In this document: in pieces, positions 470 to 47,511 of the stretch
Layout of the letters: each line of letters starts with the position of its first letter
Position numbering within the stretch: the stretch's first letter is position 1
Assembly (NCBI GenBank): GCA_964484655.1
Contig: CAZAFA010000001.1
Coordinates: 31,242-95,241 of the forward strand
Length of the DNA: 64,000 nucleotides
Source of the DNA: an uncultured Candidatus Saccharibacteria bacterium
GTDB taxonomy: Bacteria > Patescibacteriota > Minisyncoccia > UBA6257 > 2-01-FULL-56-20
Reading direction: 5' to 3'
Position numbers and translations under genes: made by a program
The notes under the pieces: generated by a model
What the model was told of the DNA's origin: nothing
The model's input: only the letters and a program-made list of their open reading frames with translations
Databases searched by the model: none

Positions 470-2294
470 CCTCGGCTTCGGGAGCGGCGAGGTCCGCGAG
501 CTGCCCCTGCACCGGGGCAGTCTGGCGTTCGCGGGCTTCGTCGCGGTCCTGGTGGTCGCGGGGGTCGTCTCGCGCATGCTCTGGCTCGGGGTCGCCCAGG
601 GCGCCTACTACGGCGAGCTCGCCGAGGCGAACGTCAACTATGCCGTCACTACGGACGCGCCGCGCGGTCGTATCCTCGACGCGTACGGTGAGCTGCTCGC
701 GGATAACGCGCCGTCGTTCGCGCTGCAGCTGGACGTGCGCGCCTACCTCAAGGAAGGGGAAGAGGAGCGCGCTGCGGCGCTCGAGCTCATCCGCGCGCAG
801 ACCGGCCTCGAGCCCGCGACCGTGGAGGAGCGCATCCAGGCGCAGCTGAAGGCCAACCGCGGCGAGCCGCTCACCGTGTACCGCGGCCTGACGGAGGCGC
901 AGGTCGTCGCCGTCCGCGCCGCCAAGCGCGCGGACGTCACCGTCCGCGAGGGCTACCAGCGCGCCTATCCGCTCGGGGCGGCCGCGGCGCACGTGGTCGG
1001 CTACACCGGGCCCGTCTCCGCGGACGACCTCGAATCCGACCCGTCCCTGATCCCGACCGACGTCATCGGCAGGCAGGGCGTCGAGGCGTACTACGACGAC
1101 CGCCTGCGCGGCATCCTCGGCCGCACGCTCGTCAGCCGCGACGCCGCCGGCGCGCTGCTCGGCGACGAGCGGACCACGCCTGCCGAGCCGGGACAGGACC
1201 TGCATCTCACGATCGACGCGGAGCTGCAGAAGTACGCGTACGAGCGGCTCACGCAGGGGCTGCATTCGCTCGGGCGCACGCGCGGCGCCGTGGTCATCGT
1301 CGACCCGCGCGACGGCGCCGTGCGCGCGCTCGCGTCCGCGCCGAGCTTCGAGCCCGAGGCGTTCGTCCAGTCCAACCGGCGCGAGGAGCGCGCGCAGTAC
1401 CTCGAGAGCGCCGACCGCCCGCTCTACGACCGCGTCGTCTCCGGCGTCTACACGCCTGGATCGACGATCAAGCCGCTGCACGCGATCGCGGCGCTGAGCG
1501 AGAACGTCGTGAGCACGGACTGGAGCATATTCTCCCCGGGCTACCTGGACATCCCGAACCCGTACAACCCGAGCAAGCCGACGCGCTACGTGGACTGGCG
1601 CTACCAGGGCGTGGTCAACGCGCGCAGTGCGATCGCGCAGTCGTCGAACGTGTACTTCTACGCCGTCGGCGGCGGCACCGGATCGCTTAAGGGCCTGGGC
1701 ATCACGCGCCTGCGCGCGTGGTGGCAGCGCTTCCTCCTCGACCAGAAGACGGGCATCGACCTGCCGGGGGAAGGCGTCGGCTTCCTCCCGAGCCCGGAAT
1801 GGAAGAAGGACCGCACAGGCAAGGACTGGCTGCTCGGCGACACGTACAACGTCTCGATCGGGCAGGGCGACCTGACGCTCACGCCGCTGCGCCTCGCGAA
1901 CTACGTCGCGGCGGTAGCGAACGGCGGCACGGTCTGGAAGCCGTTCGTGAACGCGTCCTCGACGCCGCAGGTCGCGGCGGACCTCACCATGTACGCTCCC
2001 GCGATCGCGGAAGCGCAGAAGGGGATGCGGCAGACTATCACCTCCGACCTCGGTACGGCGCACACCATGGACGGCCTGCCGTTCGCGGTCGCGGGAAAGA
2101 CCGGCTCTGCTCAGATCCAGAACAACGCCAAGGAGAACGCCTTCTTCGTCGGCTACGCCCCGTACCAGAATCCCGAGATAGCCATCGCGCTGCTCGTGGA
2201 GGACGCCAAGCACGGCAGCCTCAACGCCGTGCCGATCGCGCAGGACATCTTCCGCTGGTGGTACGAACACCGGGGAGTAGGGAAGCCAAAATAA
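423..2294 (+). CDS. mrdA: Penicillin-binding protein 2 (peptidoglycan D,D-transpeptidase)
   Basis: N-terminal TM helix. Transpeptidase motifs STIK (SxxK), SSN and KTGS present. HVVGYTG dimerisation-domain signature. The start was moved to M at 423 to limit overlap with the upstream ORF; the track ORF starts at 381. Confidence 0.8.
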   Translation: MRRYRENGLGLEDALDLGFGSGEVRELPLHRGSLAFAGFVAVLVVAGVVSRMLWLGVAQGAYYGELAEANVNYAVTTDAPRGRILDAYGELLADNAPSFALQLDVRAYLKEGEEERAAALELIRAQTGLEPATVEERIQAQLKANRGEPLTVYRGLTEAQVVAVRAAKRADVTVREGYQRAYPLGAAAAHVVGYTGPVSADDLESDPSLIPTDVIGRQGVEAYYDDRLRGILGRTLVSRDAAGALLGDERTTPAEPGQDLHLTIDAELQKYAYERLTQGLHSLGRTRGAVVIVDPRDGAVRALASAPSFEPEAFVQSNRREERAQYLESADRPLYDRVVSGVYTPGSTIKPLHAIAALSENVVSTDWSIFSPGYLDIPNPYNPSKPTRYVDWRYQGVVNARSAIAQSSNVYFYAVGGGTGSLKGLGITRLRAWWQRFLLDQKTGIDLPGEGVGFLPSPEWKKDRTGKDWLLGDTYNVSIGQGDLTLTPLRLANYVAAVANGGTVWKPFVNASSTPQVAADLTMYAPAIAEAQKGMRQTITSDLGTAHTMDGLPFAVAGKTGSAQIQNNAKENAFFVGYAPYQNPEIAIALLVEDAKHGSLNAVPIAQDIFRWWYEHRGVGKPK

Positions 2295-2295
2295 T

Positions 2296-2323
2296 GAAGA
2301 AGCCCGCATCAGCGGGCTTCTTC
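2296..2323. terminator. Hairpin terminator shared by convergent mrdA and isochorismatase-family gene
   Basis: gaagaagcccgc-atca-gcgggcttcttc perfect 12-bp stem. The stop codon of the minus-strand gene lies in the loop. Confidence 0.5.
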
Positions 2324-2887
2324 GGCTAAAACGGTGCGTGCCCAGGACACGCGACGCGCGATGCGCATCGTCAGCGATCGCGGCGGCGCGAGCAGCTCGT
2401 CGAACGTGTCGACGATCCTTCCCTTGCTCGCGAACCAACCGATGTCGTCGTCGGCAGGGTGCGTCTCCTTCCCGGCAATCACGTTCGGGCTCGTGACGAC
2501 ACCGAACTTGCGCTGCAGCGCGCCGTGCGCGGTCCAGCGGACGCATGCCGTGGCGTTGATGCCCATCAGGAACAGCGTCTCGACGCCCCAGCGGTCCAGA
2601 TGCTCCTGGAGCCTGGTATCAGCGAAGGCGTTGTCCCATTGCTTCACGATCCGCTCCTGCCGCAACACGGATACCGCAGCGACGCGCAGCGTCTCGTGCG
2701 TCGGTTCCGCCGGGATCTGGGCGTACTCCACGACTACCAGGGGTATGTCGCGCTCGGCGCAGATGCGGATCGTCCGCAGCTGATGGGGGATGATGTGCGC
2801 TGCCGCGCCTGGACGGAGCTGCCGGATGAACACCGGCTGCATGTCTATCAGGAGGACGGCGAGACCCGTCCTCGGGTCTCGGGTCAT
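2309..2887 (-). CDS. Isochorismatase-family cysteine hydrolase
   Basis: 192 aa. LVLIDMQ..F N-terminal motif and GVETLFLMGINATACV catalytic-Cys region typical of the isochorismatase/YcaC fold. Confidence 0.6.
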   Translation of the reverse strand: MTRDPRTGLAVLLIDMQPVFIRQLRPGAAAHIIPHQLRTIRICAERDIPLVVVEYAQIPAEPTHETLRVAAVSVLRQERIVKQWDNAFADTRLQEHLDRWGVETLFLMGINATACVRWTAHGALQRKFGVVTSPNVIAGKETHPADDDIGWFASKGRIVDTFDELLAPPRSLTMRIARRVSWARTVLAEEAR

Positions 2888-3012
2888 ATGCGTTCACCTC
2901 GTCTTTCAAGAGTGCAGTTTCCGCTGCCTGGCGGAAGCTCACCACGGCTCGGGAGTGCCGTCAAACGCGGCTGTTGCCTTTTTCCGACCCGTTCCGTACT
3001 ATGCGCCCTGCT

Positions 3013-3324
3013 ATGGATTCCTTCGCGATCATCGCCACCGGCGGCAAGCAGTACCTCGTCGCCCCTGGCCAGAAGCTCAAGATCGAGAAGCTTGCCGGCG
3101 AGGCGGGCGACACGGTGACTTTCGACCAGGTCCTGCTGAGCACGGACGGCAAGAAGGTCAGCGTCGGCGCGCCCATCGTGGCCGGCGCGGGCGTGAAGGG
3201 GACGATCCTCCGCCAGGCGCGATCCAAGAAGGTGACGGTCTTCAAGTACCACTCGAAGAACCGCTACGACAAGAAGAAGGGCCACCGCCAGCACTTCACC
3301 GAGGTACGCATCGAGAGCCTGTAA
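3013..3324 (+). CDS. rplU: 50S ribosomal protein L21
   Basis: MDSFAIIATGGKQYLVAPGQKL...VFKYHSKNRYDKKKGHRQHFTEVRI is strong L21 family similarity. No rpmA downstream. Confidence 0.85.
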   Translation: MDSFAIIATGGKQYLVAPGQKLKIEKLAGEAGDTVTFDQVLLSTDGKKVSVGAPIVAGAGVKGTILRQARSKKVTVFKYHSKNRYDKKKGHRQHFTEVRIESL

Positions 3325-3598
3325 AAGGGCTCTCGTCCGTTATGCACCGGTTATCCAGGACGGCCGCTTGCCTGTTCCCGCCAGGGAGGTATGCTCGTCC
3401 TTGCGTCGGAACACAGCCAGCACGTGACTGGCCGACCTCCGGGCTCTATTACCGCGAAAGCATCGCCGCTGGATTCTGAGCCAGCATTCGTTTCCGGATC
3501 ACAGGAACCACCGCTTTCGTCTTACTGACCCAGCCTGACAGGCATCCACGCAACCAAGAGGCAGCCACGTGTGCTGCCTCATTTGTCGCTTGGAATAA

Positions 3599-3627
3599 TT
3601 GACATTTAGCATATTTAATGCTTAAAT
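3599..3627 (+). promoter_or_regulatory. Sigma70-like promoter (TTGACA-17-TTAAAT) in AT-rich spacer
   Basis: ttgaca at 3599-3604 and a TAAAT-type -10 17 nt downstream. It is followed by a 5'UTR with RBS aggaga and the ATG at 3694. Confidence 0.45.
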
Positions 3628-3693
3628 ATGGGCAGTAACAAGGCAGTCCCGCTGCCCGTTCGAATCTGAATACGTAATAAGGAGACAAATACT

Positions 3694-4008
3694 ATGGCTG
3701 AAAACAGCTTCCGCGTTCGCGTGATAGACGAACGCAACCTGCCGACGGTGGTCGGCGAAACTGGCACGGTGGACCTCCATCTGGAGCACACCGATGCCGA
3801 CGGCAAGTGGGCGAACGTGAGGATGCGCGTCCGCGTCACGAAGACCGACGGATCGCGCTCGAAAGCCGAGTTCGACGGAGCGATCCTCGTCTCGCGCGGC
3901 GCGTTCCACGAACGGCACCCGTTCGGAAAGTTCCGGCTTCGGCGCGGGGACCATCCCTTCTTCCTGCGCCATCAACTGCATTCTCAGAAGGTCTTCATGA
4001 CCATCTGA
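3694..4008 (+). CDS. Hypothetical small protein (104 aa)
   Basis: Strong promoter plus AGGAGA RBS 8 nt upstream of the ATG. No recognisable family. GC is slightly lower than the neighbours. Confidence 0.5.
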   Translation: MAENSFRVRVIDERNLPTVVGETGTVDLHLEHTDADGKWANVRMRVRVTKTDGSRSKAEFDGAILVSRGAFHERHPFGKFRLRRGDHPFFLRHQLHSQKVFMTI

Positions 4009-4045
4009 CCAATTCCCAGAGCCCCCGCACCCGCGGGGGCTCGCT

Positions 4046-5482
4046 TCATCTCAGGTCGTAGACCTGGGCGTCCGGCGGCACGCCGTCGGTGCTGGTCGCA
4101 TAGAAGACGCGCTCGCGCTGCTGCGCTTCCCGCGTCGCGGTTCCCGTGACGAACATCACGGTCTGCGCCGCTACCGGCATGCCGCCGATGCGCACGTCGC
4201 CGTCGGGGACGATCACGTACGCGTCGCGAGCTCGGTCCCGCTGCAGCAGCGCCCGTCCGGCCTCGAGGTAGCTCGTCGTGAACTCGTCGCGGACCTCGGG
4301 CTTCGCGGCATACGCCGGATACCGCACCGCGGTGCTCGCGAGCGCGCCGCCGCAGACTAGTACCGCAAGCGCGATTCCCGCCCGCGGCCAGCGCCGAGCC
4401 GCGCGGTCCAGCGCGAACGCCGAAAGCAGCATCACCGGCACGACGAGGAGTATCCCGCGCAGCGCGTGCGGCATACCCTCGTTGCTGAGCACGGCGGGGA
4501 GCGCGCCCGCGACCAGGAGCGCCCCGACGATCGCCGCGTCATGCTTCCGCCGCCACAGGAGCGCGGCTCCGACGAGCGTGCAGGCGAGGACCGGCAGCGC
4601 CACCGCCGGCGCGCCGCTGTCGTTATGGCGCCAGTTGCGATCGCCGTTCCAGGCGAGCATGCCGGCCATCAGCGCGACGTTGCGCGCGATCTCTCGCGCG
4701 GGTCGCTCCGTCTCCCATGCGGCGACCTGGTCCGCGCGCTCCCCGAAGCTTCCCGGATGCGTGGCGAAGTAGTGCGCGAGGGGAGCGGCGGCGATGGCGG
4801 CGCAGACGCCGGCGAGCGCGAGCGCCGCGGCGACGCGCCTCCGCGCATCGCGCGCGCAAGCGATAAGCGCGATGCCGATCGCGGCGAACGCGAGCCCTGC
4901 GGCGCGGAAGGCGATGTACGTATGCAGGCCGACGCCGGCTAGGAATCCTCCCAGCGCAGCGAGCGGCCATCCGTTCGCGCCTTCGCGCACGCGTCGCACG
5001 CCGGCGAGGAGCGCCCAGAGCGCGAAGACGAGCACGAGCGGCGCGAGGATCGCGCGGAACCCGACGCGCGAGAAGACGACGTGCCAGAAGCTTCCCGCGA
5101 GGAGCGCCGCTGCGATCAGGCCGGCGCGCCTGCCCCAGAGCTCGCGCCCGAGCAGGTACATGCCGGGGACGGTCAGGATGCCGGCGAGCGCGGAGACCAG
5201 GCGCAGGACCCACGGCTCGCGGACGCCCGCGACGGCGAGCGCGATGGACTGCAGGTTCGCGTACAGGCCCTCGCGGCCGTTGTTGCCCGGGTAGAACCAG
5301 TCCCACCGGCCTTCGAGCGCCGCGAGGGCGTCGTTGCCCTCGGTAGCCTCGTCGGGATAGAGGCCGGGCGGCAGGTCCGCGAGGCTCGCGAGCCGCAGGG
5401 ATGCCGCGGCGAGGACGATGCCGGCGAGGAGGAGGCGCGTCGGCGTGATCCACGTGGGCAAGCGCATGGGCGAAGTGTACAC
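4046..5482 (-). CDS. Glycosyltransferase family 39 (ArnT/PMT-like, phospholipid-carrier-dependent) membrane protein
   Basis: 478 aa and polytopic. N-terminal LPPGLYPDEATEGNDA region with the conserved DE of the GT-C PMT_2/ArnT family. Confidence 0.65.
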   Translation of the reverse strand: MYTSPMRLPTWITPTRLLLAGIVLAAASLRLASLADLPPGLYPDEATEGNDALAALEGRWDWFYPGNNGREGLYANLQSIALAVAGVREPWVLRLVSALAGILTVPGMYLLGRELWGRRAGLIAAALLAGSFWHVVFSRVGFRAILAPLVLVFALWALLAGVRRVREGANGWPLAALGGFLAGVGLHTYIAFRAAGLAFAAIGIALIACARDARRRVAAALALAGVCAAIAAAPLAHYFATHPGSFGERADQVAAWETERPAREIARNVALMAGMLAWNGDRNWRHNDSGAPAVALPVLACTLVGAALLWRRKHDAAIVGALLVAGALPAVLSNEGMPHALRGILLVVPVMLLSAFALDRAARRWPRAGIALAVLVCGGALASTAVRYPAYAAKPEVRDEFTTSYLEAGRALLQRDRARDAYVIVPDGDVRIGGMPVAAQTVMFVTGTATREAQQRERVFYATSTDGVPPDAQVYDLR

Positions 5483-8221: not shown

Positions 8222-8280
8222 GTTTTTATAGAAATTTCATATCCTGTCCCCTAGGCTTGCCTCAGCTTGGAGGTGAAAAA

Positions 8281-8808
8281 ATGAATATTCGTATCGAAGA
8301 TGTACGCCATGAGCTTAGCGAGGTGTACCTTTTCTTAAATGAGCACGCGCAACAGGCACGCCAGTGCTTGCCGCCGCCGATGCTAGAAATCTTCGCTATC
8401 TGTGAAGATGACGGTGAAATAGTCGCTTGCTGCGGCGCTTCCGTAGCGAGCAAAGGAAGACTCCATATCGAGAAGATTTACCGTCTTGATGTTGAGACGG
8501 CACAATTTCTCGACAAGGAGCGCCAGAGGTTCTGCGAGATCGGGCGCTGGTTCTCGGTCGTTCCTGATGCAGCGACAGCAACCCTGAAGGCTCTGGTTAT
8601 GCATCTCGAGAAACAAGGAGTTGCGTTCGCTCTCTGCGAGCTCAAGGATGCAACGGTTCGCCGGGCAAAGCGCATGGGGCTCGCCTTTCATCAAACGGCT
8701 TCAACCTTAAATCTTGAGGCGATTGACGCAACGGAGATAGCTTACTACCAAGACGATCATCCGCCGAAGCTATACTGGCTGAATTTCGCTGAGATCCAGT
8801 GGAAGTAA
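8281..8808 (+). CDS. Hypothetical protein on a low-GC island, possible GNAT-fold acyltransferase
   Basis: 175 aa. GC ~50% against ~68% flanking. RBS ggaggtg 7 nt upstream. The C-terminal LKDATVRRAKRMGLAF resembles the GNAT motif (A/V)xxx(Y/A)xkxGF. No confident family assignment. Confidence 0.5.
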   Translation: MNIRIEDVRHELSEVYLFLNEHAQQARQCLPPPMLEIFAICEDDGEIVACCGASVASKGRLHIEKIYRLDVETAQFLDKERQRFCEIGRWFSVVPDAATATLKALVMHLEKQGVAFALCELKDATVRRAKRMGLAFHQTASTLNLEAIDATEIAYYQDDHPPKLYWLNFAEIQWK

Positions 8809-10086: not shown

Positions 10087-12255
10087 ATGCTCAAGCCTCT
10101 CGCCGACGCCTCCGACCGCGCCCTCTCCGGCATCGCGCTCGTGCGCATCGACGTCAACGCGGCTGACGACTGGCGCCTCGAGGCGGTCGTGCCTACGATT
10201 CGCCATCTCGCGGAGCGCGCGCGGAAGGTGATCGTGATCAGCCACAAGGGACGTCCGTCGCCGGGACAGCGCCTCGGCCCGCTGAGCCTCTGGAGCGACG
10301 CGCAGAAGCTGCAGGAGCATCTGGAGCAGGACGTCTGGTTCGTCTCCGACACGAGCATTCCCGCGGTGCGCAAGGAGCTCGCCACGATTCCCGACGGCAC
10401 CGTGACGGTCCTCGAGAACATCCGCGCCTTCAAGGGCGAATCCTCGGACGCGGAGAGCTTCGCGGCCGCGCTCGCCTCGCTCGGGGACTACTACGTCTCC
10501 GACGCGTTCCCGGTCTTGCATCACCCGGCGGCTTCCGTGACCGGCCTGCCGCGCCTCCTGCCGAGCTACGCCGGCTTCCAGCTCACCGAGGAGCTCGAGC
10601 GGCTCGGCAAGCTCTCCAACCGCGTGCGCCGGCCGTACGTGGTGGTAATCGGCGGCGCGAAGGCGGGGGACAAGCTCGGCGTCCTCGAGGAGGTGATCGG
10701 GCGCGCGGACAAGGTGCTCGTCGGCGGCGCGTGCGCGAACGCGCTGCTCGCGCTCTCGGGCGTCGACGTCGGGAACTCCGTCTACGAGCGCGACCCGAAG
10801 CTGCTCGCCGCGCTCAAGCCGTACGTGGGGCATAAGAAGATCATCCTGCCGACGGACTACGTCAGGAGCGGCGGCCGGATCCTCGACATCGGCCCGAAGA
10901 CGGCGCGCGCCTTCGCGCGCGAGGTGGGCAAGGCGGGGACCGTGCTCTGGACGGGCCCGCTCGGCCTCATCGAGCAGAAGCGCTTCGCGAAGGGCACGCT
11001 CGCCGCGGCCGTCGCGGCGGCGCGCAACCGCAAGGCGTTCACGGTCACCGGCGGCGGCGAGACGGTCACGTTCCTCAAGCAGCACGGCCTCGACCGGAAG
11101 TTCTCCTTCATCTCGACCGGCGGCGGCGCGATGATCGACTTCGTCGCGGGGAAGAAGCTGCCCGGCCTCGAGGCGCTCGCCGGACGCAAGGCGCCCGCCC
11201 CGCGGAAGAAGGCGGCCACGACGAAGGAGCGCGTCGCCCAGGTCATCGCGCCGAAGATGCCGAAGCTCGCGCCGACCTATGACATCTTCTTCCACGACGA
11301 CTTCGACGGCCGCGCCTCGGCCGCGGTCTTCATGGACTTCCTGTCGTCGCGCAAGAGCAAGGTGGGCCGCCTGATCCCGGTGGAGCACGACCTTGCCGAC
11401 GTCTGGCTCAAGCGCGACGCGCTCAATCGCATCGCCGGCAGCAAGCGGATCAACCCGGCCGTAGTCGTGGATTTCCCGTACCACCCGCAGGCCGCCTTCT
11501 GGTATGACCATCATCCGGGCGCCATCCGCCTGCCGGAGTGGGAGGCGCGCTTCCAGCCGTCCGTGTTCCGCCGGCTCGACACGGACTACGCGTCGGCCTG
11601 CCATCTCGTCCTGGACATGCTCGTCGAGGGATTCGGGTACGCGCCGCCGCGCCGCATCAAGGAGCTCGCGCGCTGGGCGGACATCGTCGACAGCGCCCGC
11701 TGGACCAACCCGTATCAGACCTTCGCGCTTCGGGAGCCTGGCATGCAGGTGAGCTCCTTCATCAGCGACGAGGCTGCCGCCGCCGCGCGCCGCGGCGAGC
11801 GCACGGACGCGCTTCCCTGGCTCATCGAGCTCATGGCCAAGCACGGCGTCGAGCGCGCCTCGCGCGACAAGCGCGTGCAGGCGGCCGTCGCGCGCATCCG
11901 CGAGGAGAGCAAGCAGTCGCTCGCGTTCTACCGCCGCAACCTGGAGGAGCGGGGGATCGTCGCGGTCATCGACACGTCGGGCCTGCCGACGCGCAAGCTG
12001 CGGTACGCGCCGTACTACCTGTCTCCCGCAGCGATCTACGCGCTCGCCCTGTCCGAGCGCAAGGACGGCTCGTACGTCATCCAGGCAGGCGTCAGCCCCT
12101 GGAAACGGGAGCGCAACGCCTTCGACATCGGCGGCGTGCTCCGGCAGTTCGGGGGCGGCGGCCATCCCTTCGCGGGCGCCGTGCGGCTCGCCACCCGAGC
12201 CGAAGCCGACCGCGTCGTCGACTACCTCGTCTCGCTGTTCAATGGCACCAGCTAG
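10087..12255 (+). CDS. pgk: Fusion protein: phosphoglycerate kinase (N-terminal) plus DHH/DHHA1 phosphoesterase (NrnA-like, C-terminal)
   Basis: Residues 1-~372 form a complete PGK, ending with the PGK C-terminus FISTGGGAMIDFVAGKKLPGLEAL. A basic linker follows. The C-terminal ~350 aa carry DHH motifs FHDDFDG, VVVDFPYHP, WYDHHPG and the DHHA1 GGGGHPFAG. There is no stop between the two parts. Confidence 0.75.
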   Translation: MLKPLADASDRALSGIALVRIDVNAADDWRLEAVVPTIRHLAERARKVIVISHKGRPSPGQRLGPLSLWSDAQKLQEHLEQDVWFVSDTSIPAVRKELATIPDGTVTVLENIRAFKGESSDAESFAAALASLGDYYVSDAFPVLHHPAASVTGLPRLLPSYAGFQLTEELERLGKLSNRVRRPYVVVIGGAKAGDKLGVLEEVIGRADKVLVGGACANALLALSGVDVGNSVYERDPKLLAALKPYVGHKKIILPTDYVRSGGRILDIGPKTARAFAREVGKAGTVLWTGPLGLIEQKRFAKGTLAAAVAAARNRKAFTVTGGGETVTFLKQHGLDRKFSFISTGGGAMIDFVAGKKLPGLEALAGRKAPAPRKKAATTKERVAQVIAPKMPKLAPTYDIFFHDDFDGRASAAVFMDFLSSRKSKVGRLIPVEHDLADVWLKRDALNRIAGSKRINPAVVVDFPYHPQAAFWYDHHPGAIRLPEWEARFQPSVFRRLDTDYASACHLVLDMLVEGFGYAPPRRIKELARWADIVDSARWTNPYQTFALREPGMQVSSFISDEAAAAARRGERTDALPWLIELMAKHGVERASRDKRVQAAVARIREESKQSLAFYRRNLEERGIVAVIDTSGLPTRKLRYAPYYLSPAAIYALALSERKDGSYVIQAGVSPWKRERNAFDIGGVLRQFGGGGHPFAGAVRLATRAEADRVVDYLVSLFNGTS

Positions 12256-19577: not shown

Positions 19578-19648
19578 GCGGGATTAGTACATCGGTAGTA
19601 CGCTTGCTTCCCAAGCAAGAGAGACGGGTTCGATTCCCGTATCCCGCT
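19578..19648 (+). tRNA. tRNA-Gly (anticodon CCC)
   Basis: Cloverleaf read by hand: acceptor gcgggat/atcccgc, anticodon stem cttgc/gcaag with loop ttCCCaa, T-arm acggg-ttcgattc-ccgt. No encoded CCA. Confidence 0.75.
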
Positions 19649-20835
19649 CAGAAGGAGAGCGTCTCGCGCTCGCGGATCAGCTCGGCGATGCCCGGGCGCA
19701 GCAGCGCTTCCGCAGGACGCGGCCGCGCGTTGTACGTCGACGCCATGGAGTATCCGTACGCTCCCGCGGTGAGGATGCCGAGGACGTCGCCCTCCTGCGG
19801 CAGGGGAAGCTCGCGGCCCTCGGCGAAGACGTCGCCGGACTCGCAGACGTTCCCCGCGACCGTGACGGTCTCGCGCGACGCGTCCGGGCTCGTGAGGTTC
19901 AGGACGTGGTGGTAGCTGCCGTACATGGCGGGGCGCGCGAGCTGGTTGAAGCCGCTGTCCACGCCGACGAACACCCGGTCCGGGGTGCGCTTCACGTCGG
20001 TCACGGTGACGAGGAGCGTCCCGCTCTCGGCCACGAGGTAGCGGCCTGCCTCGAAGCGCATCGTCAGCTGCCTGCCGTACTCTCCGCAGAAGCGCTGGAA
20101 GCGCTCGCCGATCCGCGCGCCGAGGGACGCGATGTCCAGCGCCTCCTCCTCAGGCCGGTACGGCACGCCGAACCCGCCGCCGAAGTCGACGTAGGTGAGG
20201 TCGGGGAGCGTCGCCGCGGTCGCGAGGAGCGCCTCGACGGCGGCCATGAAGACCTCCTGGTCGAGGACGTTGGAGCCGATATGCTGGTGCACCCCGACGA
20301 TGCGCAGGCCGAGCTCCTGCGCCCATGCCGCGGCCTGGTCCACCTGCTCGTGATGGATGCCGAACTTGCTGCGCGGCCCGCCCGTGATGACGTGGTCGTG
20401 GTGCCCGGCGCCGATGCCTTGGTTGACGCGGATGCCGATGCCGCCGCCGGGGATGATGCGGGCGAGCTTCTCGATCTGCCCGAACGAGTCCGCGTTGACG
20501 CGCACGCCGCGCTCAGCGACCGCGCGGAGCTCCGCCTCGGAGACGTTGCTGCAGGTGTAGAGAATGTCCGCAGGCGCGAAGCCCGCCGCGAGCGCGGCGC
20601 GCACCTCGCCCTCGGATACCGTCTCGACGCCGGCGCCGAGCTCGCGCAGGAGCTTGAGGATCGCGGGATTGGTGTTCGCCTTGCACGCGAAGTGGATCCG
20701 CGTGTCGTGCCAGGAGATGCCCGAAGCGAGCGCGCGGTACCGCTCGGCGATCGTCGACTCGTCGTACGCGTAGAGCGGCGAGCCGAAGCGCGCGAGGAGC
20801 GCGCGCGGGTCGTGGCCGGCAAGGCGGGGTTCCAT
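19648..20835 (-). CDS. lysA: Diaminopimelate decarboxylase
   Basis: PLP fold-III decarboxylase signatures: the HFACKAN PLP lysine, GGGFGVPY, and the C-terminal CESGD region. Confidence 0.8.
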   Translation of the reverse strand: MEPRLAGHDPRALLARFGSPLYAYDESTIAERYRALASGISWHDTRIHFACKANTNPAILKLLRELGAGVETVSEGEVRAALAAGFAPADILYTCSNVSEAELRAVAERGVRVNADSFGQIEKLARIIPGGGIGIRVNQGIGAGHHDHVITGGPRSKFGIHHEQVDQAAAWAQELGLRIVGVHQHIGSNVLDQEVFMAAVEALLATAATLPDLTYVDFGGGFGVPYRPEEEALDIASLGARIGERFQRFCGEYGRQLTMRFEAGRYLVAESGTLLVTVTDVKRTPDRVFVGVDSGFNQLARPAMYGSYHHVLNLTSPDASRETVTVAGNVCESGDVFAEGRELPLPQEGDVLGILTAGAYGYSMASTYNARPRPAEALLRPGIAELIRERETLSF

Positions 20836-20883
20836 GCGCGGAAGTATAGCGAAGCCCCGCGTCATATGCGGGGCTTCGCGAGT

Positions 20884-26681: not shown

Positions 26682-26755
26682 CGGGCCGTAGTATACCGGT
26701 AGTACGTGCGCTTCGGGTGCGTAAAGACCGAGTTCGATTCTCGGCGGCCCGACCA
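26682..26755 (+). tRNA. tRNA-Pro (anticodon CGG), CCA encoded
   Basis: cgggccg-ta-gtataccggtagtac-g-tgcgc-ttCGGgt-gcgta-aagac-cgag-ttcgatt-ctcgg-cggcccg-a-cca. Confidence 0.7.
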
Positions 26756-26851
26756 GGAGTCAACGAGCATCCCTAGGGATGCTCGTTGACCATTTATCTA
26801 AAATTCCTTATAATATGAGGCGCCGAAAGGCGTGTTCCAAGAAAACAGAAT

Positions 26852-34518: not shown

Positions 34519-34552
34519 AAAGGACCCCGCTTGGTGCGGGGTCCTTTCGTTA
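34519..34552 (+). terminator. Rho-independent terminator
   Basis: aaaggaccccgc-ttgg-tgcggggtcctttcgtt. Confidence 0.5.
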
Positions 34553-34911
34553 GGCGGCGTCCTGGTAAGCGGGATTCTGTCGCGCGAGCGCGGGCAGCAA
34601 TCTGTCTGGGATCATCGTCGCCGATGACCTCAAGCGGCACTCCGGCTTGCGCCGGCACGGCCTTGCACCCGGTAAGGATTTAGCCGTTTCACCCCGGCGG
34701 TCTCCCGCCGGACTGTCCCCGAGGGGACCCGGAGGCATTTCTGCTCCGGCGTCTCTGTTCGCACCTCTCGCGTTGCCGCGGCGGGCCGTTAGCCCGTACC
34801 TTTTTGACTCGATGAAGAGTGGGTGTCCCGACTTTCCTCTGGAGCGGAACTCCAGCTGCTGCCTCGGACGCCGCGCTGGCAGTCTGTCAGCTTTGGCTCG
34901 CGATGCAAGGC

Positions 34912-38740: not shown

Positions 38741-39166
38741 ATGAACAAGCGAATCCTCGTCGTAGACGACGATCCGGATTTCCGCGAGATATTCTCCACG
38801 CACCTCCGCATGAAGGGGTATGACGTGGACACGGCGATGAACGCCGACGACGGCCTGGCCAAGGTCCGTACCGACGCTCCCGACCTGGTGCTCATGGACG
38901 TGCAGATGCCGCCCGGCAAGACGGGCATCGAGGCGTTCTTCGAGCTGAAGAACGATCCGGCGACCAAGGACGTGCCGATCATGTTCCTCACGAACCTCGG
39001 CGCGACCGAGGTGGAGGCGCAGCAGATCAACGTGCAGTACGCCAAGGAGCTCGGCGCGATCGGCGTGCTGAAGAAGACCGAGGACCTCAAGAGCCTCAGC
39101 GAGGCCGTTGCCGCGCAGTTCGCGCAGGAGGTCGGGACGAGCACGCCGCCAGCGCCGGTAGCGTAA
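38741..39166 (+). CDS. Single-domain response regulator (CheY-like receiver)
   Basis: ILVVDDDPDF, the LVLMDVQMP phospho-acceptor Asp, and the conserved Lys region. Confidence 0.75.
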   Translation: MNKRILVVDDDPDFREIFSTHLRMKGYDVDTAMNADDGLAKVRTDAPDLVLMDVQMPPGKTGIEAFFELKNDPATKDVPIMFLTNLGATEVEAQQINVQYAKELGAIGVLKKTEDLKSLSEAVAAQFAQEVGTSTPPAPVA

Positions 39167-39200
39167 AAAATCGAGCCCGCGGTTTTCCGCGGGCTCTGCA
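39167..39200 (+). terminator. Rho-independent terminator
   Basis: aaaaatcgagcccgcggttttccgcgggctc. Confidence 0.45.
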
Positions 39201-39203
39201 TTC

Positions 39204-39737
39204 TCACATCTCGAGCAGGTATTCGGCGATGACGCCGCCTTCCTCCAAGTATCTCGCCTTCGCGTCGTCAGGCAGGTCCTTGAACCCGCCGATGGCGCCG
39301 CGGCAGATGCCGCTGCCGCACAGGCAGGGGACCCCTGCCGCGGTGACGTCGTACTCGAGGGTGGCGTAGTCGAACGCCAGTTCTTCCCCGACCGCGATGT
39401 CGCGACGGGCGACGACCGCGATGACCGCGACCGTGCCTTCCCAGCTCGGACGGACGATCACGGTAGGATCGCACGAATGGTTGAGGAAGTGTCCCGGATT
39501 GAAGGTGCCGTTCAGGCGTTCCGGCTCGATGTGCCGGTCCCGGTCGAACGCGAACGAATACTTCGTCGGCGCGTTCACAAGCATACCTTTCACCGGGAAG
39601 ATCATCTCACCCTTGCGGAACGATCGCGTTGCGATCACGCCCGCCTGTCCGCTCACGGACGGGCTCAGCCCGATGGCTATGCCCCAGTAGTCCATGAAAT
39701 ATATTGCGCCGTCGATGACGGGCGTATTGCTGTCCAT
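39204..39737 (-). CDS. SET-domain protein-lysine methyltransferase
   Basis: FLNHSCDPT (NHSCxPN motif), EELAFDY (ELxFDY), and the post-SET Cys cluster CLCGSGICRG. Confidence 0.7.
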   Translation of the reverse strand: MDSNTPVIDGAIYFMDYWGIAIGLSPSVSGQAGVIATRSFRKGEMIFPVKGMLVNAPTKYSFAFDRDRHIEPERLNGTFNPGHFLNHSCDPTVIVRPSWEGTVAVIAVVARRDIAVGEELAFDYATLEYDVTAAGVPCLCGSGICRGAIGGFKDLPDDAKARYLEEGGVIAEYLLEM

Positions 39738-39754
39738 ATGGTTCGTCGTCTCCT

Positions 39755-39834
39755 GATTTTTCGAAAAATCGAACTGCTCCTATTTTACATACAAAATCAG
39801 ATTTTTGTCAATCGTAGCCTATGTAAAAAGGAGC
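39755..39834 (-). promoter_or_regulatory. Promoter (TTGACA-N17-TAAAAT on minus strand) plus perfect 16-bp palindrome in the 5'UTR of the SET gene
   Basis: The minus strand reads ttgacaaaaatctgattttgtatgTAAAAT, and the palindrome is gatttttcgaaaaatc at 39755-39770. A second inverted repeat is ctcctattttacata/tatgtaaaaaggag. Confidence 0.4.
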
Positions 39835-39858
39835 ATCTCTCCGATGCTCCTTTTCGCC
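39828..39858. terminator. Bidirectional terminator insulating SAM decarboxylase from SET gene
   Basis: aaaaaggagcatc-tctcc-gatgctcctttt. Confidence 0.5.
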
Positions 39859-39871
39859 GAACGGTCCCTTC

Positions 39872-40252
39872 CTAGACGCGGGTGACCACGCTGTGGTTCT
39901 CGTCGCCCGCCTTCCAGTACTCCATGCAGAACTTCACCGCGTCCTCGGGGTCGAACTCGCGGCACGAGAAGAGGTTGAGGTACATGGTCTTGGTGATCGT
40001 GAGGGCATGGCACACGACGTTGCTGGTCTCGATGAACTGGATCGCCGAGATGCCGTCGAGGTGGGGGATGCCGGAGTGGTCCTCCCACATCATCGGCTCG
40101 CCGTGGCGCACCATCTTAACGTGGTCGACGAGCTTGACGAGGAATTCGCCCAGCGTTTCCTGCGTGAGGCCGCTGAAGTCGCATCCGCGCATGTCGAGGA
40201 TCAGCTCGAGGCCGTAATTGCCCCGGTATCCGTATTGCTCCTGTTCTGCCAT
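39872..40252 (-). CDS. speH: S-adenosylmethionine decarboxylase proenzyme (SpeH-like, class 1)
   Basis: LELILDMRGCD and ETSNVVCHALTITK...LFSC parallel the ESH...HTWPE...FTCG layout of small bacterial/archaeal AdoMetDC. The start at M(AEQEQ) is uncertain. Confidence 0.5.
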   Translation of the reverse strand: MAEQEQYGYRGNYGLELILDMRGCDFSGLTQETLGEFLVKLVDHVKMVRHGEPMMWEDHSGIPHLDGISAIQFIETSNVVCHALTITKTMYLNLFSCREFDPEDAVKFCMEYWKAGDENHSVVTRV

Positions 40253-40395
40253 TGAAATGAGATGATGATTTGAGAGTTCGGCTCTTGACCGCATTCTAGA
40301 CCTCTGGGGATGTGGGCTCAAGTGTCCCCGCGGGTTTTCCCCAGGGGCTGATTCCCGGTGCGCTACACTATCCCTATCGGGTCCTATCTGTCCCC

Positions 40396-41223
40396 ATGCC
40401 CCTCATCCTCTCCATAGTCTACGCGGCCACCCTGGTCTTCTGGCTCGCCGTCGCGCGCGATCCGGCAAATGTCTCGGCAGGGCTCAACATGCAGCTCCTG
40501 CTGTTCGCGGTCCCGTTCATCGGGGCGCTCGTGGGCCTGTATAACGCGCGCCAGTGGGGCGGCCTGAAGAGCTCCGTCGGCAAGGCCGTCGGGTTCATCG
40601 CCGGCGGCGTGCTCGCCTGGTCCGTCGGCATGCTCATCTGGTGCTACTACATCTTCGTCGCTCAGGTGGAGATCCCGTACCCGTCGCTCGCCGACGCCTC
40701 CTTCATCCTGAGCTGGCCCCTCTGGACGATCGGCATCTACTGGCTCTCCAAGGCCACGGGCGTCCGCTACGCCATCCGCGAGGGCAAGGGCAAGGCGCTC
40801 CTGGTGGTCGTGCCCCTCGTCGCGCTCGCCATCGCGTACTACCTCCTGGTCGTCGTCGCGCGCGGCGGCGTCATCGAGCTCGAGGCGCTCGATCCCTGGA
40901 AGTCGTTCTTCGACCTCTTCTACCCGATCGGCAGCGCGATCATCCTCGCGTTCACGCTCACGTTCTTCAGCCTCTCCAGCTCATTCCTCGGCGGGCGGTA
41001 CCGCAAGCCGATCACCATCCTGGTCCTCGCGCTCCTCGTGAACTTCGCGGCAGACATCGTGTTCTCGTACACCACGACCAACGAGACCTACTACAACGGC
41101 GCGATCGCCGACATGCTCTTCGTGACGGGCATGTTCCTGTTCTCGCTCAGCCTGAGCCTGATGCGCCCGCCCGTGCAGTCGCCGCAGCCACAGTCGCAGC
41201 CGCTTCCCGCCGCAACGTCATGA
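40396..41223 (+). CDS. Hypothetical polytopic membrane protein
   Basis: About 275 aa with 7-8 hydrophobic helices and a C-terminal PQPQSQP tail. Confidence 0.4.
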   Translation: MPLILSIVYAATLVFWLAVARDPANVSAGLNMQLLLFAVPFIGALVGLYNARQWGGLKSSVGKAVGFIAGGVLAWSVGMLIWCYYIFVAQVEIPYPSLADASFILSWPLWTIGIYWLSKATGVRYAIREGKGKALLVVVPLVALAIAYYLLVVVARGGVIELEALDPWKSFFDLFYPIGSAIILAFTLTFFSLSSSFLGGRYRKPITILVLALLVNFAADIVFSYTTTNETYYNGAIADMLFVTGMFLFSLSLSLMRPPVQSPQPQSQPLPAATS

Positions 41224-41513
41224 TCATGAGCACGCTCGACCAGATCGCTGGGAGGATCATCAAGGAGCAGGAGCTCATCCTCGGGCCTCTCGCCTGGGAC
41301 GAGGCGGCGAACGTTCCTCATCTCCAGATCCTCGACCGCGCGAACGGCTCGGTCGACATCCCCGAGGGTCCCGAGGGCAGCCGGGTGATCGACGAGCTCG
41401 TGAACCGCTACGTCGACCTCTTCGGACGCGCCGCGCGCGAGGCCTGCCGCGAGGCGGCGCATGCGCTCGTCGCCGACCTGCCGCCCGGAGAGGTCCCCGA
41501 GAGTCTCCGCTAG
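41220..41513 (+). CDS. Hypothetical small soluble protein
   Basis: 97 aa. Its start overlaps the upstream stop (ATGA). Acidic. Confidence 0.3.
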   Translation: MIMSTLDQIAGRIIKEQELILGPLAWDEAANVPHLQILDRANGSVDIPEGPEGSRVIDELVNRYVDLFGRAAREACREAAHALVADLPPGEVPESLR

Positions 41514-41556
41514 GGGAAACGAAAAGACGCCGCGATTGCGCGGCGTCTTCGTTGTC
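41514..41556. terminator. Bidirectional terminator
   Basis: gaaaagacgccgcg-attg-cgcggcgtcttcgtt. Confidence 0.5.
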
Positions 41557-42187
41557 AGGTCTGCAGGATCTGCACGAGCACGATCACTGCGATGAGTAGG
41601 TGCCAGAACCAATAGTTCGTAGGAGTTATCAGTTCTCGCCACCAGAGCTTGTCGCTCCTGCGCATCATCACGCAGAGCATCTGCATGAAGAATCCGGCCG
41701 CCCACATCGCCCAAGGCAGGAGCGGCTCGATTCCCGGGTTCTCGTACGCGGATCGCGCGATGGGAAGCGCGCTGAAGACCAGCAGGACCTGGAACGCGAC
41801 CGTGGCCGGCCACACCTCATCTTTCTTCAGCGCTCGCCGGTATATCGCGAGGACGATCAGCGCGAGGATCGCGCTGATCACGTCCTTCCCTTCCACTACT
41901 GCGAGCAGGGGAATGCCGGTGACGAGCGAACGACCTATCAGGATGAGCGTGATCGCCACGCATCCGGCGGCTGCTGCGACCTCCTCCGCGTATTTCGCGA
42001 GGTCGCCGCGGACCTGCCGCTTGTATATGTGATAGCTGAGCACGGTCTCAATCGACCAGAGCGCCCAGCCGATCACGTTCGTATCCGTCTGCGCGAGCAG
42101 CAGATACCCACCGTAGATCAGGTACGCGATCGCGCTTATCAGCGCGCCTGCATAGCCGAGCACTTTGCCGATTGTTCTCATATTCAT
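41555..42187 (-). CDS. Hypothetical membrane protein
   Basis: About 210 aa with 6 TM helices. The start is placed at MNMRT. Confidence 0.4.
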   Translation of the reverse strand: MNMRTIGKVLGYAGALISAIAYLIYGGYLLLAQTDTNVIGWALWSIETVLSYHIYKRQVRGDLAKYAEEVAAAAGCVAITLILIGRSLVTGIPLLAVVEGKDVISAILALIVLAIYRRALKKDEVWPATVAFQVLLVFSALPIARSAYENPGIEPLLPWAMWAAGFFMQMLCVMMRRSDKLWWRELITPTNYWFWHLLIAVIVLVQILQT

Positions 42188-42308
42188 TTTCAACGCGGAC
42201 CTCCAGCCGCTTCTCAACTGCCCATATTATAGCATAAAAATCTCATTCAGGCAATTGTCGGTGCCACTTCGTCATTCCTGGCCGGCGCCGGTGCTGTAGA
42301 ATGAGCTC

Positions 42309-43718
42309 ATGGATCCTCAGTCGAAGGCCGCGGAAGAGGCCGCCTCCGTTCCGGGCATGCCCGCGAAGGACAGCGCCCAGGCGCTGGCGCAGGGCCTGTA
42401 CGCCCGCACGGTCGAGATGGGGATCAAGAACAAGATCCTCTCGCTCCTCGAGCAGCTCTACGGCATCAGCATCCAGCAGCAGTCCACGAAGGATCTCGCG
42501 AGCAAGCTGGCGCCTGTCCTCTGTAACGACCTGTCCTGCGAGTTCGTGTCGCTCCAGCGCTATCTCGACGGCGAAGACAAGCGGCTCGAGACGCTCGCGG
42601 TCGCGGGCTCGGAGCGGTACGCCGAGGCGGCGCGCTCGCTCGGCGTCGACCTGTCGGCGGCCGTCGTGCCGCTCGCCTCGACGCAGGCGCTCGTGGAATG
42701 CGTCACCGAGCATCGGTTCGTAGAGCGCGATTCGCTGTCGTCGGTTTGGGGAGACCTGATCCGCGCGTCGGAGCAGGAGCTTGCCGAGAAGGCGCATGCG
42801 CGCTACGTGATGCTCTACCCGCTCGCCGGCGGCGGGCAGGTCATCGGCGTCCTCGCGCTCGTGCTCAACCGCTCGCGCGCGCAGCTGTCCAGCCTCGAGC
42901 GCGTCCTCTTCGACAACGCGGCCAACGTCGTCGGCATCGCGTTCGAGAAGACGCACCTTTACGAGGCGCTCCAGGACGCGAACACGCAGCTCGGGGATGT
43001 CAGCCACTTCAAGAGCCAGCTCCTGAGCCTCGCCTCGCACCAGATCAAGGCGCCGCTCGCGGCCATGAAGGGGTACATCTCGCTCATCCTCGAGGGCGGC
43101 TACGGCGAGGTTCCGGAGAATCTCATGAAGCCGATCACCGCGATGCAGCGTTCCGCGGACGGCCTCGTCGAGCTGGTCACCTCGCTCCTCGATCTCCGCA
43201 AGATCGAGGAGGGGAAGATGGACTACTCGTTCGACCAGGTCGACCTCGCCGCCATGGTCCGCGACGTGGTCGAGGAGCTCGGCATGCTCGCCCGCGAGAA
43301 GCATCTCGACCTCACCCTCGCCGGCGCGCAGAGCCCGGTCTTCGTCCGCGCGGACAAGACCAAGCTCCGCCAGGTCGCCCAGAACCTCGTGGACAACGCG
43401 ATCAAGTACACCCCCAGCGGCTCGGTGAACGTCTCGCTCATCGTCCAGGACCGGTTCGTCACGTGCACGGTCGCAGACACGGGCCTCGGCATGGCCCCGC
43501 TCCTGCTACCGCGCCTCTTCGACGAGTTCACGCGCGACCAGCGCGTGCAGCACACCATCCGCGGCACGGGTCTCGGCCTCTACATCGCGAAGCGCATCAT
43601 GGAGGCGCACGGCGGCGGCATCTACGCGGACAGCGCCGGCGAGGGCCTCGGCTCGCGCTTCTGGTTCACGCTGCCGATCGACCAGGACCTGCCGGTCCCG
43701 GTGCCGCCGGCGGCGTAG
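42309..43718 (+). CDS. Cytoplasmic GAF-domain sensor histidine kinase
   Basis: No TM. A central GAF-like region, the HisKA H-box LASHQIKAPL, and HATPase_c N/G1/G2 boxes (NLVDNAIKYT, DTGLGM, GTGLGL). Confidence 0.75.
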   Translation: MDPQSKAAEEAASVPGMPAKDSAQALAQGLYARTVEMGIKNKILSLLEQLYGISIQQQSTKDLASKLAPVLCNDLSCEFVSLQRYLDGEDKRLETLAVAGSERYAEAARSLGVDLSAAVVPLASTQALVECVTEHRFVERDSLSSVWGDLIRASEQELAEKAHARYVMLYPLAGGGQVIGVLALVLNRSRAQLSSLERVLFDNAANVVGIAFEKTHLYEALQDANTQLGDVSHFKSQLLSLASHQIKAPLAAMKGYISLILEGGYGEVPENLMKPITAMQRSADGLVELVTSLLDLRKIEEGKMDYSFDQVDLAAMVRDVVEELGMLAREKHLDLTLAGAQSPVFVRADKTKLRQVAQNLVDNAIKYTPSGSVNVSLIVQDRFVTCTVADTGLGMAPLLLPRLFDEFTRDQRVQHTIRGTGLGLYIAKRIMEAHGGGIYADSAGEGLGSRFWFTLPIDQDLPVPVPPAA

Positions 43719-45714: not shown

Positions 45715-47311
<1,597 letters not shown>

Positions 47312-47511
47312 AGCCCTGTAACGGGGACAGGCTAGAGAGTAGGTCGGTCACGGTAGAGCCTCCGGGCACCGTCCGCGGGGGACCAATAGGCCCTTCGGAA
47401 TGGCTATCGTGGATCGCTACAGTCGTAGCACCTATTGGGGCAACTACTAAGCTTTTCTGTCATTACTGCCGCCGGTACCGCATACTATACTTGTGGTACT
47501 ATCTCTACCCC

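Follow-up and report, generated by a model that had tools for sequence, protein, structure and literature searches.

RESULTS

The locus pairs a SET methyltransferase gene with a decarboxylase gene

We analyzed a 64,000-nucleotide (nt) stretch of DNA from an uncultured Candidatus Saccharibacteria bacterium (contig CAZAFA010000001.1, positions 31,242 to 95,241), here called the window, in which a gene for a SET-domain methyltransferase lies directly behind a gene for a pyruvoyl decarboxylase homolog with the fold of S-adenosylmethionine (AdoMet or SAM) decarboxylase (AdoMetDC). The two enzymes probably cooperate on an amine or amino acid, a metabolite that they would share, because in bacteria of the candidate phyla radiation (CPR) type the SET gene almost always sits directly behind the decarboxylase gene. 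The SET gene and its parts are as follows.

39204-39737, minus strand: SET and post-SET methyltransferase gene (177 amino acids [aa], pI 4.8)
39465-39482, minus strand: NHSCDP, residues 86 to 91, with the SAM-binding Asn-His and a Cys that joins the post-SET zinc site (translation and alignment)
39366-39383, minus strand: ELAFDY, residues 119 to 124, with active-site Tyr124 (translation and alignment)
39303-39326, minus strand: post-SET CLCGSGIC (CxCx4C), residues 138 to 145 (C138, C140, and C145), which aligns to CHCGAPNC of the Burkholderia enzyme BurB (see below)
39207-39284, minus strand: C-terminal extension FKDLP...Y..EG.I..YLL, residues 152 to 177, two helices (32-sequence alignment and secondary structure)
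39173-39196, minus strand: intrinsic terminator of the SET gene, a 10-bp GC stem followed by GATTTTTT, between the SET gene and a convergent response regulator gene

The original prediction, made from the DNA letters, had called this protein a SET methyltransferase with a post-SET motif, and that assignment holds. The Pfam SET model matched at 52.5 bits (gathering cutoff, 22.4; E = 7.4e-14), all of the motifs are in place, and a confident AlphaFold model (mean predicted local distance difference test [pLDDT] score, 91.5) recovers the SET beta-fold in three dimensions. With ELAFDY and Tyr124 present and the fold recovered in the model, neither the SET fold nor the catalytic Tyr/pseudoknot appears to be missing. 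In an alignment of 32 homologs, N86, H87, C89, D90, P91, and D123 are invariant, while Y124, C138, C140, and C145 are kept in at least 90% of the sequences; C89 and the three post-SET cysteines make up a conserved, predicted zinc cluster. On its motifs and predicted structure the protein falls within the SET superfamily, with all testable defining features present, and it looks like an active, minimal SAM-dependent methyltransferase with an intact SAM and zinc motif set. It is one of a family of bacterial stand-alone proteins, some 160 to 180 aa long, that have a conserved (F/W/A)K(D/E)LP C-terminal extension, an extension that is family specific and partly common to BurB (GAKELPND).

SET proteins had been described as uncommon in bacteria, a view that our counts do not bear out. 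We found at least 520 relatives among species-representative genomes, and a 2014 review (PMC3980110) put the number of bacterial species with SET genes, as of 2007, at 83 out of 390. When the family is clustered at 50% identity, there are 5,366 clusters at E <=1e-3 and only 12 at E <=1e-30. Taken alone, the SET gene is ordinary. Tandem forms of the domain also occur, as P0335 (1479 aa), P0336 (1449 aa), P0338, and P0351 each carry 5 to 8 tandem SET copies that are about 33 to 35% identical to the window SET, an arrangement that is unusual for a methyltransferase.

The upstream neighbor is probably a neofunctionalized amino acid decarboxylase

The features of the neighboring gene are listed below.

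39872-40252, minus strand: AdoMetDC-fold pyruvoyl decarboxylase homolog, 126 aa from the ATG at 40252 (Pfam AdoMet_dc; the alignment with the protein of locus L002 runs from residue 1)
40022-40024, minus strand: codon of Ser77, the predicted pyruvoyl precursor in QFIE-T|S-NVVCH (family alignments)
40293-40321, minus strand: TTGAGC-17-TAGAAT, a promoter-like site of lower quality ahead of the decarboxylase gene, in the region between the divergent genes (9 of 12 positions match; no clear conservation)

As had been predicted, the next gene upstream of the SET gene encodes a match to Pfam AdoMet_dc (44.4 bits; cutoff, 25), but its description as a SAM-consuming enzyme is doubtful. The NCBIfam SpeH equivalog model (TIGR03330) gave only 22.9 bits against a cutoff of 75.65, and the predicted cleavage dipeptide is Thr76-Ser77, in contrast to the Glu-Ser of bona fide AdoMetDC. 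Because these two features do not agree with AdoMetDC, we do not class the neighbor as a bona fide member. A phmmer search of the Protein Data Bank (PDB) returned no chain at E <=1. The AlphaFold2 model of the neighbor (pLDDT, 94) gave TM scores of 0.74 to 0.78 to the Thermotoga maritima and Aquifex AdoMetDC enzymes, and for the T. maritima enzyme (1TLU/1VR7) TM scores of 0.76 to 0.78 went with an identity of just 15 to 18%. Ser77, His82, and Cys97 align to Ser63, His68, and Cys83 of the T. maritima enzyme. The Pro that follows the catalytic His in T. maritima is kept by most family members, but in the window protein its place is taken by Thr86. The family is strongly conserved internally (...RHGEPxFWEDHSGIPHLxGISAxQFIETSNVVCH...YLNxFSC), with T76 invariant and S77 at least 90% conserved. 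In a phage collection, matches were confined to the AdoMetDC of Sinorhizobium phage (24% identity) and to a single Microcystis phage.

A rough test with a SpeE query found no SpeE-like sequence in the window or in about 180 further loci. AdoMetDC homologs without a SpeE partner have repeatedly become pyruvoyl L-ornithine (SpeDC) or L-arginine (SpeDA) decarboxylases (PMC10407285; PMC9992855); the neofunctionalized CPR homologs include Ca. Kaiserbacteria OGG79367, and experiments have shown CPR AdoMetDC homologs to be ornithine decarboxylases (PMC10407285). The neighbor resembles these enzymes (PMC10407285, PMC9992855) in having a class 1b AdoMetDC fold and a Ser/His/Cys triad while being far from bona fide SpeD, in occurring in CPR genomes with no SpeE detected nearby, and in having the Gln and a Thr before the Ser. 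Of the residues described as diagnostic for SpeDC near the processing site, Gln, Thr, Phe, and Tyr (PMC10407285), Gln72, Thr76, and Tyr91 are compatible, and there is no obvious Phe at the expected place. The genomic partners of validated SpeDC genes are hss, speE, or casdh/casdc, whereas the neighbor occurs with a SET gene, an eight-transmembrane (8-TM) protein gene, and a kinase gene, and no member of the hss, speE, or casdh/casdc Pfam families was found among the called genes of the examined loci. The neighbor is probably a neofunctionalized amino acid decarboxylase and not a bona fide AdoMetDC, and its substrate may be a basic amino acid. Elsewhere in the window, a pyridoxal phosphate (PLP) decarboxylase encoded at 19648-20865 was considered as a polyamine gene and ruled out, since it is LysA (407 bits; cutoff, 298).

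The decarboxylase and SET genes form a conserved cassette

In 17 distinct loci, whose SET relatives are 41 to 77% identical and whose GC contents range from 0.33 to 0.64, the decarboxylase gene immediately precedes the SET gene and has the same orientation (the window, L175, L176, L002, L179, L162, L166, L167, L178, L003, L081 to L085, L087, and L091). The decarboxylase is degraded in L167. The labeled members of this set are assigned to Candidatus Paceibacteria, Paceibacterota, or Patescibacteria, and in one metagenome-assembled genome the two proteins are numbered consecutively (HEY4506496.1 and HEY4506497.1). Intergenic distances run from -17 to +47 nt for 12 of the 17 loci, with overlapping stop and start codons in three of these 12, and a spacer of 91 to 145 nt that contains a hairpin and a promoter is found only in the sublineage of the window. 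The flank downstream of the cassette differs between loci. Pairwise distances of the SET and decarboxylase proteins are correlated (r = 0.50; Mantel P, ~2e-4), with SET evolving about 1.6 times faster than the decarboxylase. When loci were sampled from the decarboxylase side, SET lay directly downstream in two of three CPR look-ups (L178 and L179), and the third locus, L180, had no SET gene. As far as our searches show, a cassette of SET and an AdoMetDC homolog is undescribed, and we found no literature linking SET domains with Patescibacteria.

Among more distant SET homologs (<44% identity; Actinomycetota, Solirubrobacterales, and others), clustering of 667 neighboring open reading frames (ORFs) revealed no dominant partner. 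A glutamate-decarboxylase-like gene does occur near SET in 5 to 7 Solirubrobacterales loci; because it is part of a formate/formaldehyde-dehydrogenase synteny block, it was not used as evidence.

The spacer carries a promoter, a hairpin, and a palindrome

The 134-nt, AT-rich spacer between the two genes contains the following elements.

39782-39811, minus strand: sigma-70-type internal promoter of the SET gene, TTGACA-18-TAAAAT (11 of 12 consensus positions, spacer of 18 nt)
39750-39754, minus strand: Shine-Dalgarno AGGAG, 12 nt ahead of the SET ATG (from the sequence; kept in L175 and L176)
39755-39770, no strand: perfect 16-bp palindrome GATTTTTCGAAAAATC in the predicted 5' untranslated region, directly 5' of AGGAG
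39826-39854, minus strand: hairpin with a 12-bp stem and 5-nt loop followed by a T run, after the decarboxylase stop codon (terminator or attenuator)

The promoter that had been predicted for the SET gene is present, although its hexamers are separated by 18 nt and not by 17. Both hexamers, like AGGAG, are kept in the two closest relatives, L175 and L176, whose SET proteins are 77% and 70% identical to that of the window, and the structure of the hairpin is maintained by compensatory changes in L175, L176, and L002. Judged by this conservation in the two nearest relatives, for the hairpin by way of compensatory changes, the internal promoter and the terminator or attenuator are functional elements of the window's sublineage. 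What had been described as a second, 14-bp inverted repeat and a bidirectional terminator is probably this one hairpin with its 12-bp stem, and it is codirectional, because both genes are on the same strand. The inverted-repeat listing also has an imperfect 11-nt pair (91%) at 39775-39785/39825-39835; beyond the palindrome and the hairpin, no clear inverted repeat was found between the genes. A search of positions 39100 to 40500 against Rfam at E <=1 returned a chance snoRNA match only, and no riboswitch.

The perfect 16-bp palindrome reported in the original prediction lies where it was said to, and it had been proposed as an operator. If it were the binding site of a dedicated repressor with its own regulon, its position would be suitable, as it spans roughly +5 to +20 on the predicted transcript and falls between the -10 hexamer and the ribosome-binding site, and the chance of such a palindrome in this spacer is about 0.003, a value that is uncorrected for the roughly 60 intergenic regions. 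However, the window has 7 perfect palindromes of at least 16 bp where about 4 are expected, and no second copy of GATTTTTCGAAAAATC was found in the 64 kb when up to 3 mismatches were allowed. The palindrome is also absent from L175 and L176, the same relatives that keep the promoter and terminator, and the adjoining gene module has no gene for a DNA-binding regulator, its response regulator being receiver only. As an RNA hairpin the palindrome folds at a mere -0.8 kcal/mol. It is therefore above chance only weakly and is probably lineage specific, a candidate site only, and a repressor regulon defined by it is very unlikely.

A membrane protein and kinase module diverges from the cassette

On the other side of the decarboxylase gene, and beyond the SET gene, are the genes listed below.

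40396-41223, plus strand: divergent gene for a membrane protein with about 7 or 8 TM segments, 275 aa (no Pfam or NCBIfam match)
41220-41513, plus strand: conserved 97-aa protein, whose start overlaps the stop of the membrane protein gene
42309-43718, plus strand: cytoplasmic GAF-HisKA-HATPase histidine kinase, part of the conserved neighborhood
38741-39166, plus strand: receiver-only response regulator, convergent with SET (conserved in the closest relatives only)

The membrane protein, about 272 aa long with 7 or 8 TM segments, is the most constant neighbor of the decarboxylase in CPR genomes, and its homologs are hypothetical proteins that are widespread across CPR phyla. The family of the second gene, a protein of 95 aa, has the motif LFGRAxRExCREAA. 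This module (40396 to 43718 in the window; also in L162, L175, L176, L178, L179, and L180) is divergent from the decarboxylase gene in most loci, and its two-component genes may regulate the cassette or sense its product. In L166 (4480 to 5391) and L167 (4991 to 5485), a stand-alone LPG_synthase_C protein (aminoacyl-phosphatidylglycerol synthase-like) or a PEMT/ICMT-family membrane methyltransferase replaces the 8-TM protein upstream of the cassette, a hint that the cassette may have to do with modification of amines or lipid head groups.

The intergenic region between the decarboxylase and membrane protein genes contains a 10-nt inverted repeat, CCTCTGGGGA/TCCCCAGGGG, at 40301-40347, and a motif like (C/T)GTGGGGATAACT is conserved at the same intergenic place in L176, L002, and L179. 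If the loci share a regulatory site, this divergent region is a more likely place for it than the 16-bp palindrome.

Candidate substrates of the cassette

Characterized SET enzymes are nearly all protein-lysine methyltransferases. The best sequence and Foldseek matches of the SET protein are the SET domains of MLL1, MLL3, SET1, and ASH1L, which have the same NHSC, ELxFDY, and post-SET zinc motifs; against the PDB, Foldseek ranked the MLL1 and MLL3 domains first (E = 2e-9) and BurB eighth (E = 1.9e-8). In the alignment with MLL1, Tyr60 is opposite the Tyr of the CYMF strand, Tyr124 is conserved, and an acidic protein (pI 4.8) would suit basic protein substrates. SET genes are also found on their own in other bacteria, one module that is otherwise complete lacks SET, and in this window SET has its own promoter. 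A stand-alone enzyme of this kind, essentially as in the original prediction, which named HU-like nucleoid proteins or ribosomal proteins as candidate substrates, might methylate proteins of these two classes, the decarboxylase, or a target in the signaling module, with its position next to the decarboxylase gene reflecting coregulation or an enzyme-target relation. In contrast to the MLL/SET1/ASH1L domains, however, the window protein has no flanking domains or complex partners, has extra C-terminal helices, is encoded in an operon with a decarboxylase, and lacks the SET-I insert that lines the peptide groove of MLL-type enzymes (a gap of 14 to 15 residues in the MLL1 alignment). A tight and deeply conserved operon with a decarboxylase would be unexpected for a general protein methylase, and alignments of the decarboxylase family and of the 95-aa protein contain no invariant Lys that could serve as a dedicated protein target. 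Prokaryotes likewise encode the SET proteins cpnSET, NUE, LegAS4/RomA, BaSET, and Go1-SET (PMC3980110), two of which, Go1-SET and cpnSET, resemble the window protein in their small size and have basic DNA-binding proteins as methylation substrates. These five are effectors or chromatin-protein methylases for which no decarboxylase partner has been reported, and we found no paper reporting a characterized prokaryotic SET protein methyltransferase from Patescibacteria. We do not class the SET protein as a protein-lysine methyltransferase, but this activity is the main rival of the reading that we favor and is only somewhat less probable.

A second point of comparison is BurB, a 172-aa enzyme of Burkholderia thailandensis that S-methylates free L-methionine to S-methylmethionine, which BurI then decarboxylates (PMC12542666; PMC7496086). 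BurB/MSMT (Burkholderia bur cluster and Streptomyces mobaraensis; PDB 9L4T/9L4V) is similar in size to the window protein (172 versus 177 aa), and both are stand-alone SET and post-SET proteins with a CxCx4CR...G.K(D/E)LP C-terminal tail. In the one stretch of BurB that was compared, residues 129 to 160 (DVLMRQFECHCGAPNCRRWITGAKELPNDIGQ) align without gaps to residues 130 to 161 of the SET protein (DVTAAGVPCLCGSGICRGAIGGFKDLPDDAKA). BurB, too, is encoded with an amino acid decarboxylase of the same pathway. However, the identity is only about 27 to 29%, the partner here has a pyruvoyl AdoMetDC fold, comes first in the operon, and is not a BurI/SMMDC homolog, and, unlike the bur cluster, this locus has no BurD-type transaminase, BurE-type dehydrogenase, or nonribosomal peptide synthetase-polyketide synthase context. 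Because of this low identity and the different cluster context, we do not class the SET protein as a BurB ortholog.

The cassette might nonetheless carry out the same chemistry, with SET making S-methylmethionine from L-methionine and the AdoMetDC homolog decarboxylating it to the amine of dimethylsulfoniopropionate (DMSP), in a PLP-independent version of the BurB-BurI and MSMT-SMMDC steps. A SET methyltransferase followed by an S-methylmethionine decarboxylase is known from Burkholderia and Streptomyces, and the ancestral substrate of AdoMetDC is also a methionine sulfonium, of which S-methylmethionine is a truncated form, so that an AdoMetDC fold would be plausible for this step. Against such a route, the match to BurB is no better than that to MLL1, none of the examined loci has an aminotransferase or an aldehyde dehydrogenase that could carry DMSP synthesis further, and the Thr-Ser and Gln features of the decarboxylase are tied in the literature to ornithine decarboxylation. 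There is also no ecological hint of DMSP for these groundwater and soil CPR genomes. We consider the sulfonium route improbable.

Our favored reading, to which we assign a probability of about 0.45, is that the two genes form a two-step decarboxylate-and-methylate cassette that acts on a small amine or basic amino acid, by analogy with BurB-BurI. The decarboxylase would convert a basic amino acid to an amine, most likely L-ornithine to putrescine, and the SET enzyme would then N-methylate a terminal amino group of this amine, although the order of the steps could be reversed. An amino group on a butyl chain, as in putrescine or free lysine, is chemically equivalent to a lysine side chain and should fit the SET lysine channel. 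The fold, the catalytic motifs, the operon ancestry and coinheritance of the two genes, and the internal promoter are shown by the data, whereas a metabolite common to both enzymes is inferred. In the sublineage of the window, a terminator hairpin and a strong sigma-70 promoter have been inserted between the cistrons, so that SET can be transcribed alone. The cassette is probably controlled by, or feeds, the module of the membrane protein, the 95-aa protein, and the histidine kinase.

A fusion protein also bears on the choice of substrate. A 1051-aa ORF in two metagenome contigs (L092 and L094, both at 2277 to 5432; Ga0114963_10000918 and Ga0209189_1001874; GC content, 0.71) encodes a complete cyanophycin synthetase with Cyanophycin_syn, ATP-grasp, and Mur_ligase_M and C domains, and its residues 906 to 991 are a C-terminal SET domain that is 41% identical to the window SET. 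This suggests methylation of the Arg or Lys side chains of cyanophycin or its precursors and points to basic side chains outside ribosomal proteins.

Several observations weigh against a decarboxylate-and-methylate cassette. In L180, the decarboxylase, membrane protein, 95-aa protein, and kinase genes are codirectional and SET is absent; because the remaining module genes are there without it, SET is dispensable for the module. Solo SET genes that are about 40 to 50% identical occur in non-CPR genomes. One of these, in a Vicinamibacterales contig (L004, 5920 to 6465, 49% identical; L086, 316 to 861, 47% identical), adjoins a gene for an IstB-like insertion sequence ATPase and has a GC content at codon position 3 of 0.53 to 0.55, compared to about 0.75 in the neighboring genes, which suggests recent horizontal transfer of SET without the decarboxylase. 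Conversely, non-CPR decarboxylase homologs that are about 58% identical (L170 and L171 to L174, all at 5001 to 5360; labeled Thermodesulfobacteriota, Deltaproteobacteria, or Acidobacteria) have no SET gene. In these loci, the decarboxylase gene overlaps the stop of a 2-hydroxyacid dehydrogenase gene, itself preceded by an EamA transporter gene, or follows a peptidase M20 gene. No polyamine genes were found near these homologs, and for this reason the AdoMetDC subfamily may have an undescribed substrate. In the window itself, the terminator and promoter separate the two genes, which weakens the case for strict coexpression, and the SET core is nearly as good a match to MLL/SET1-type protein-lysine methyltransferases as to BurB.

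Other features of the window

A 32-bp perfect palindrome, GTCAACGAGCATCCCTAGGGATGCTCGTTGAC, lies at 26759-26790, 4 nt after a tRNA-Pro gene (26682-26755); it is by far the longest palindrome of the window, perhaps a terminator or a site of integration or recombination. A complete 16S rRNA gene is present at 45715-47292 on the plus strand with no 23S rRNA gene after it; the gene that comes next, at 47491, encodes a receiver-domain protein. In CPR genomes, rRNA genes that are unlinked in this way are considered common. At 34550-34874 on the minus strand, an RNase P RNA scored barely above the gathering threshold (107.9 versus 100). A T_hemolysin-family gene at 8257-8808 has a third-position GC content of 0.57, compared to about 0.9 in its neighbors, which suggests a foreign origin. 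A 722-aa ORF at 10087-12255 has a PGK domain in its first 356 residues only and is either a fusion or an overextended ORF call.

DISCUSSION

A SET enzyme is nearly always assumed to methylate lysines of proteins (histones), yet work on BurB between 2020 and 2025 showed that a small bacterial SET protein can methylate a free amino acid (PMC12542666; PMC7496086), and the cassette described here offers a directly testable second case of a small-molecule substrate. As a tentative extension, the cassette might make N-methylated putrescine or cadaverine, or DMSP-amine, with the product made or sensed under control of the module of the membrane protein, the 95-aa protein, and the kinase; in episymbiotic cells, such a product might serve for signaling or as a protective cation. 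If the SET enzyme turned out to be an ordinary lysine methyltransferase instead, it would be a routine new member of a known family. If the cassette does act on a free amine, BurB would no longer be the sole SET enzyme with a small-molecule substrate, and N-methylation of a free amine would be new for a SET enzyme. The cassette would also be a warning against automatic "AdoMet decarboxylase" and "histone-lysine methyltransferase" annotations, and it would reveal a new amine or polyamine modification pathway in organisms of largely unknown metabolism and widen the known chemistry of the SET fold.

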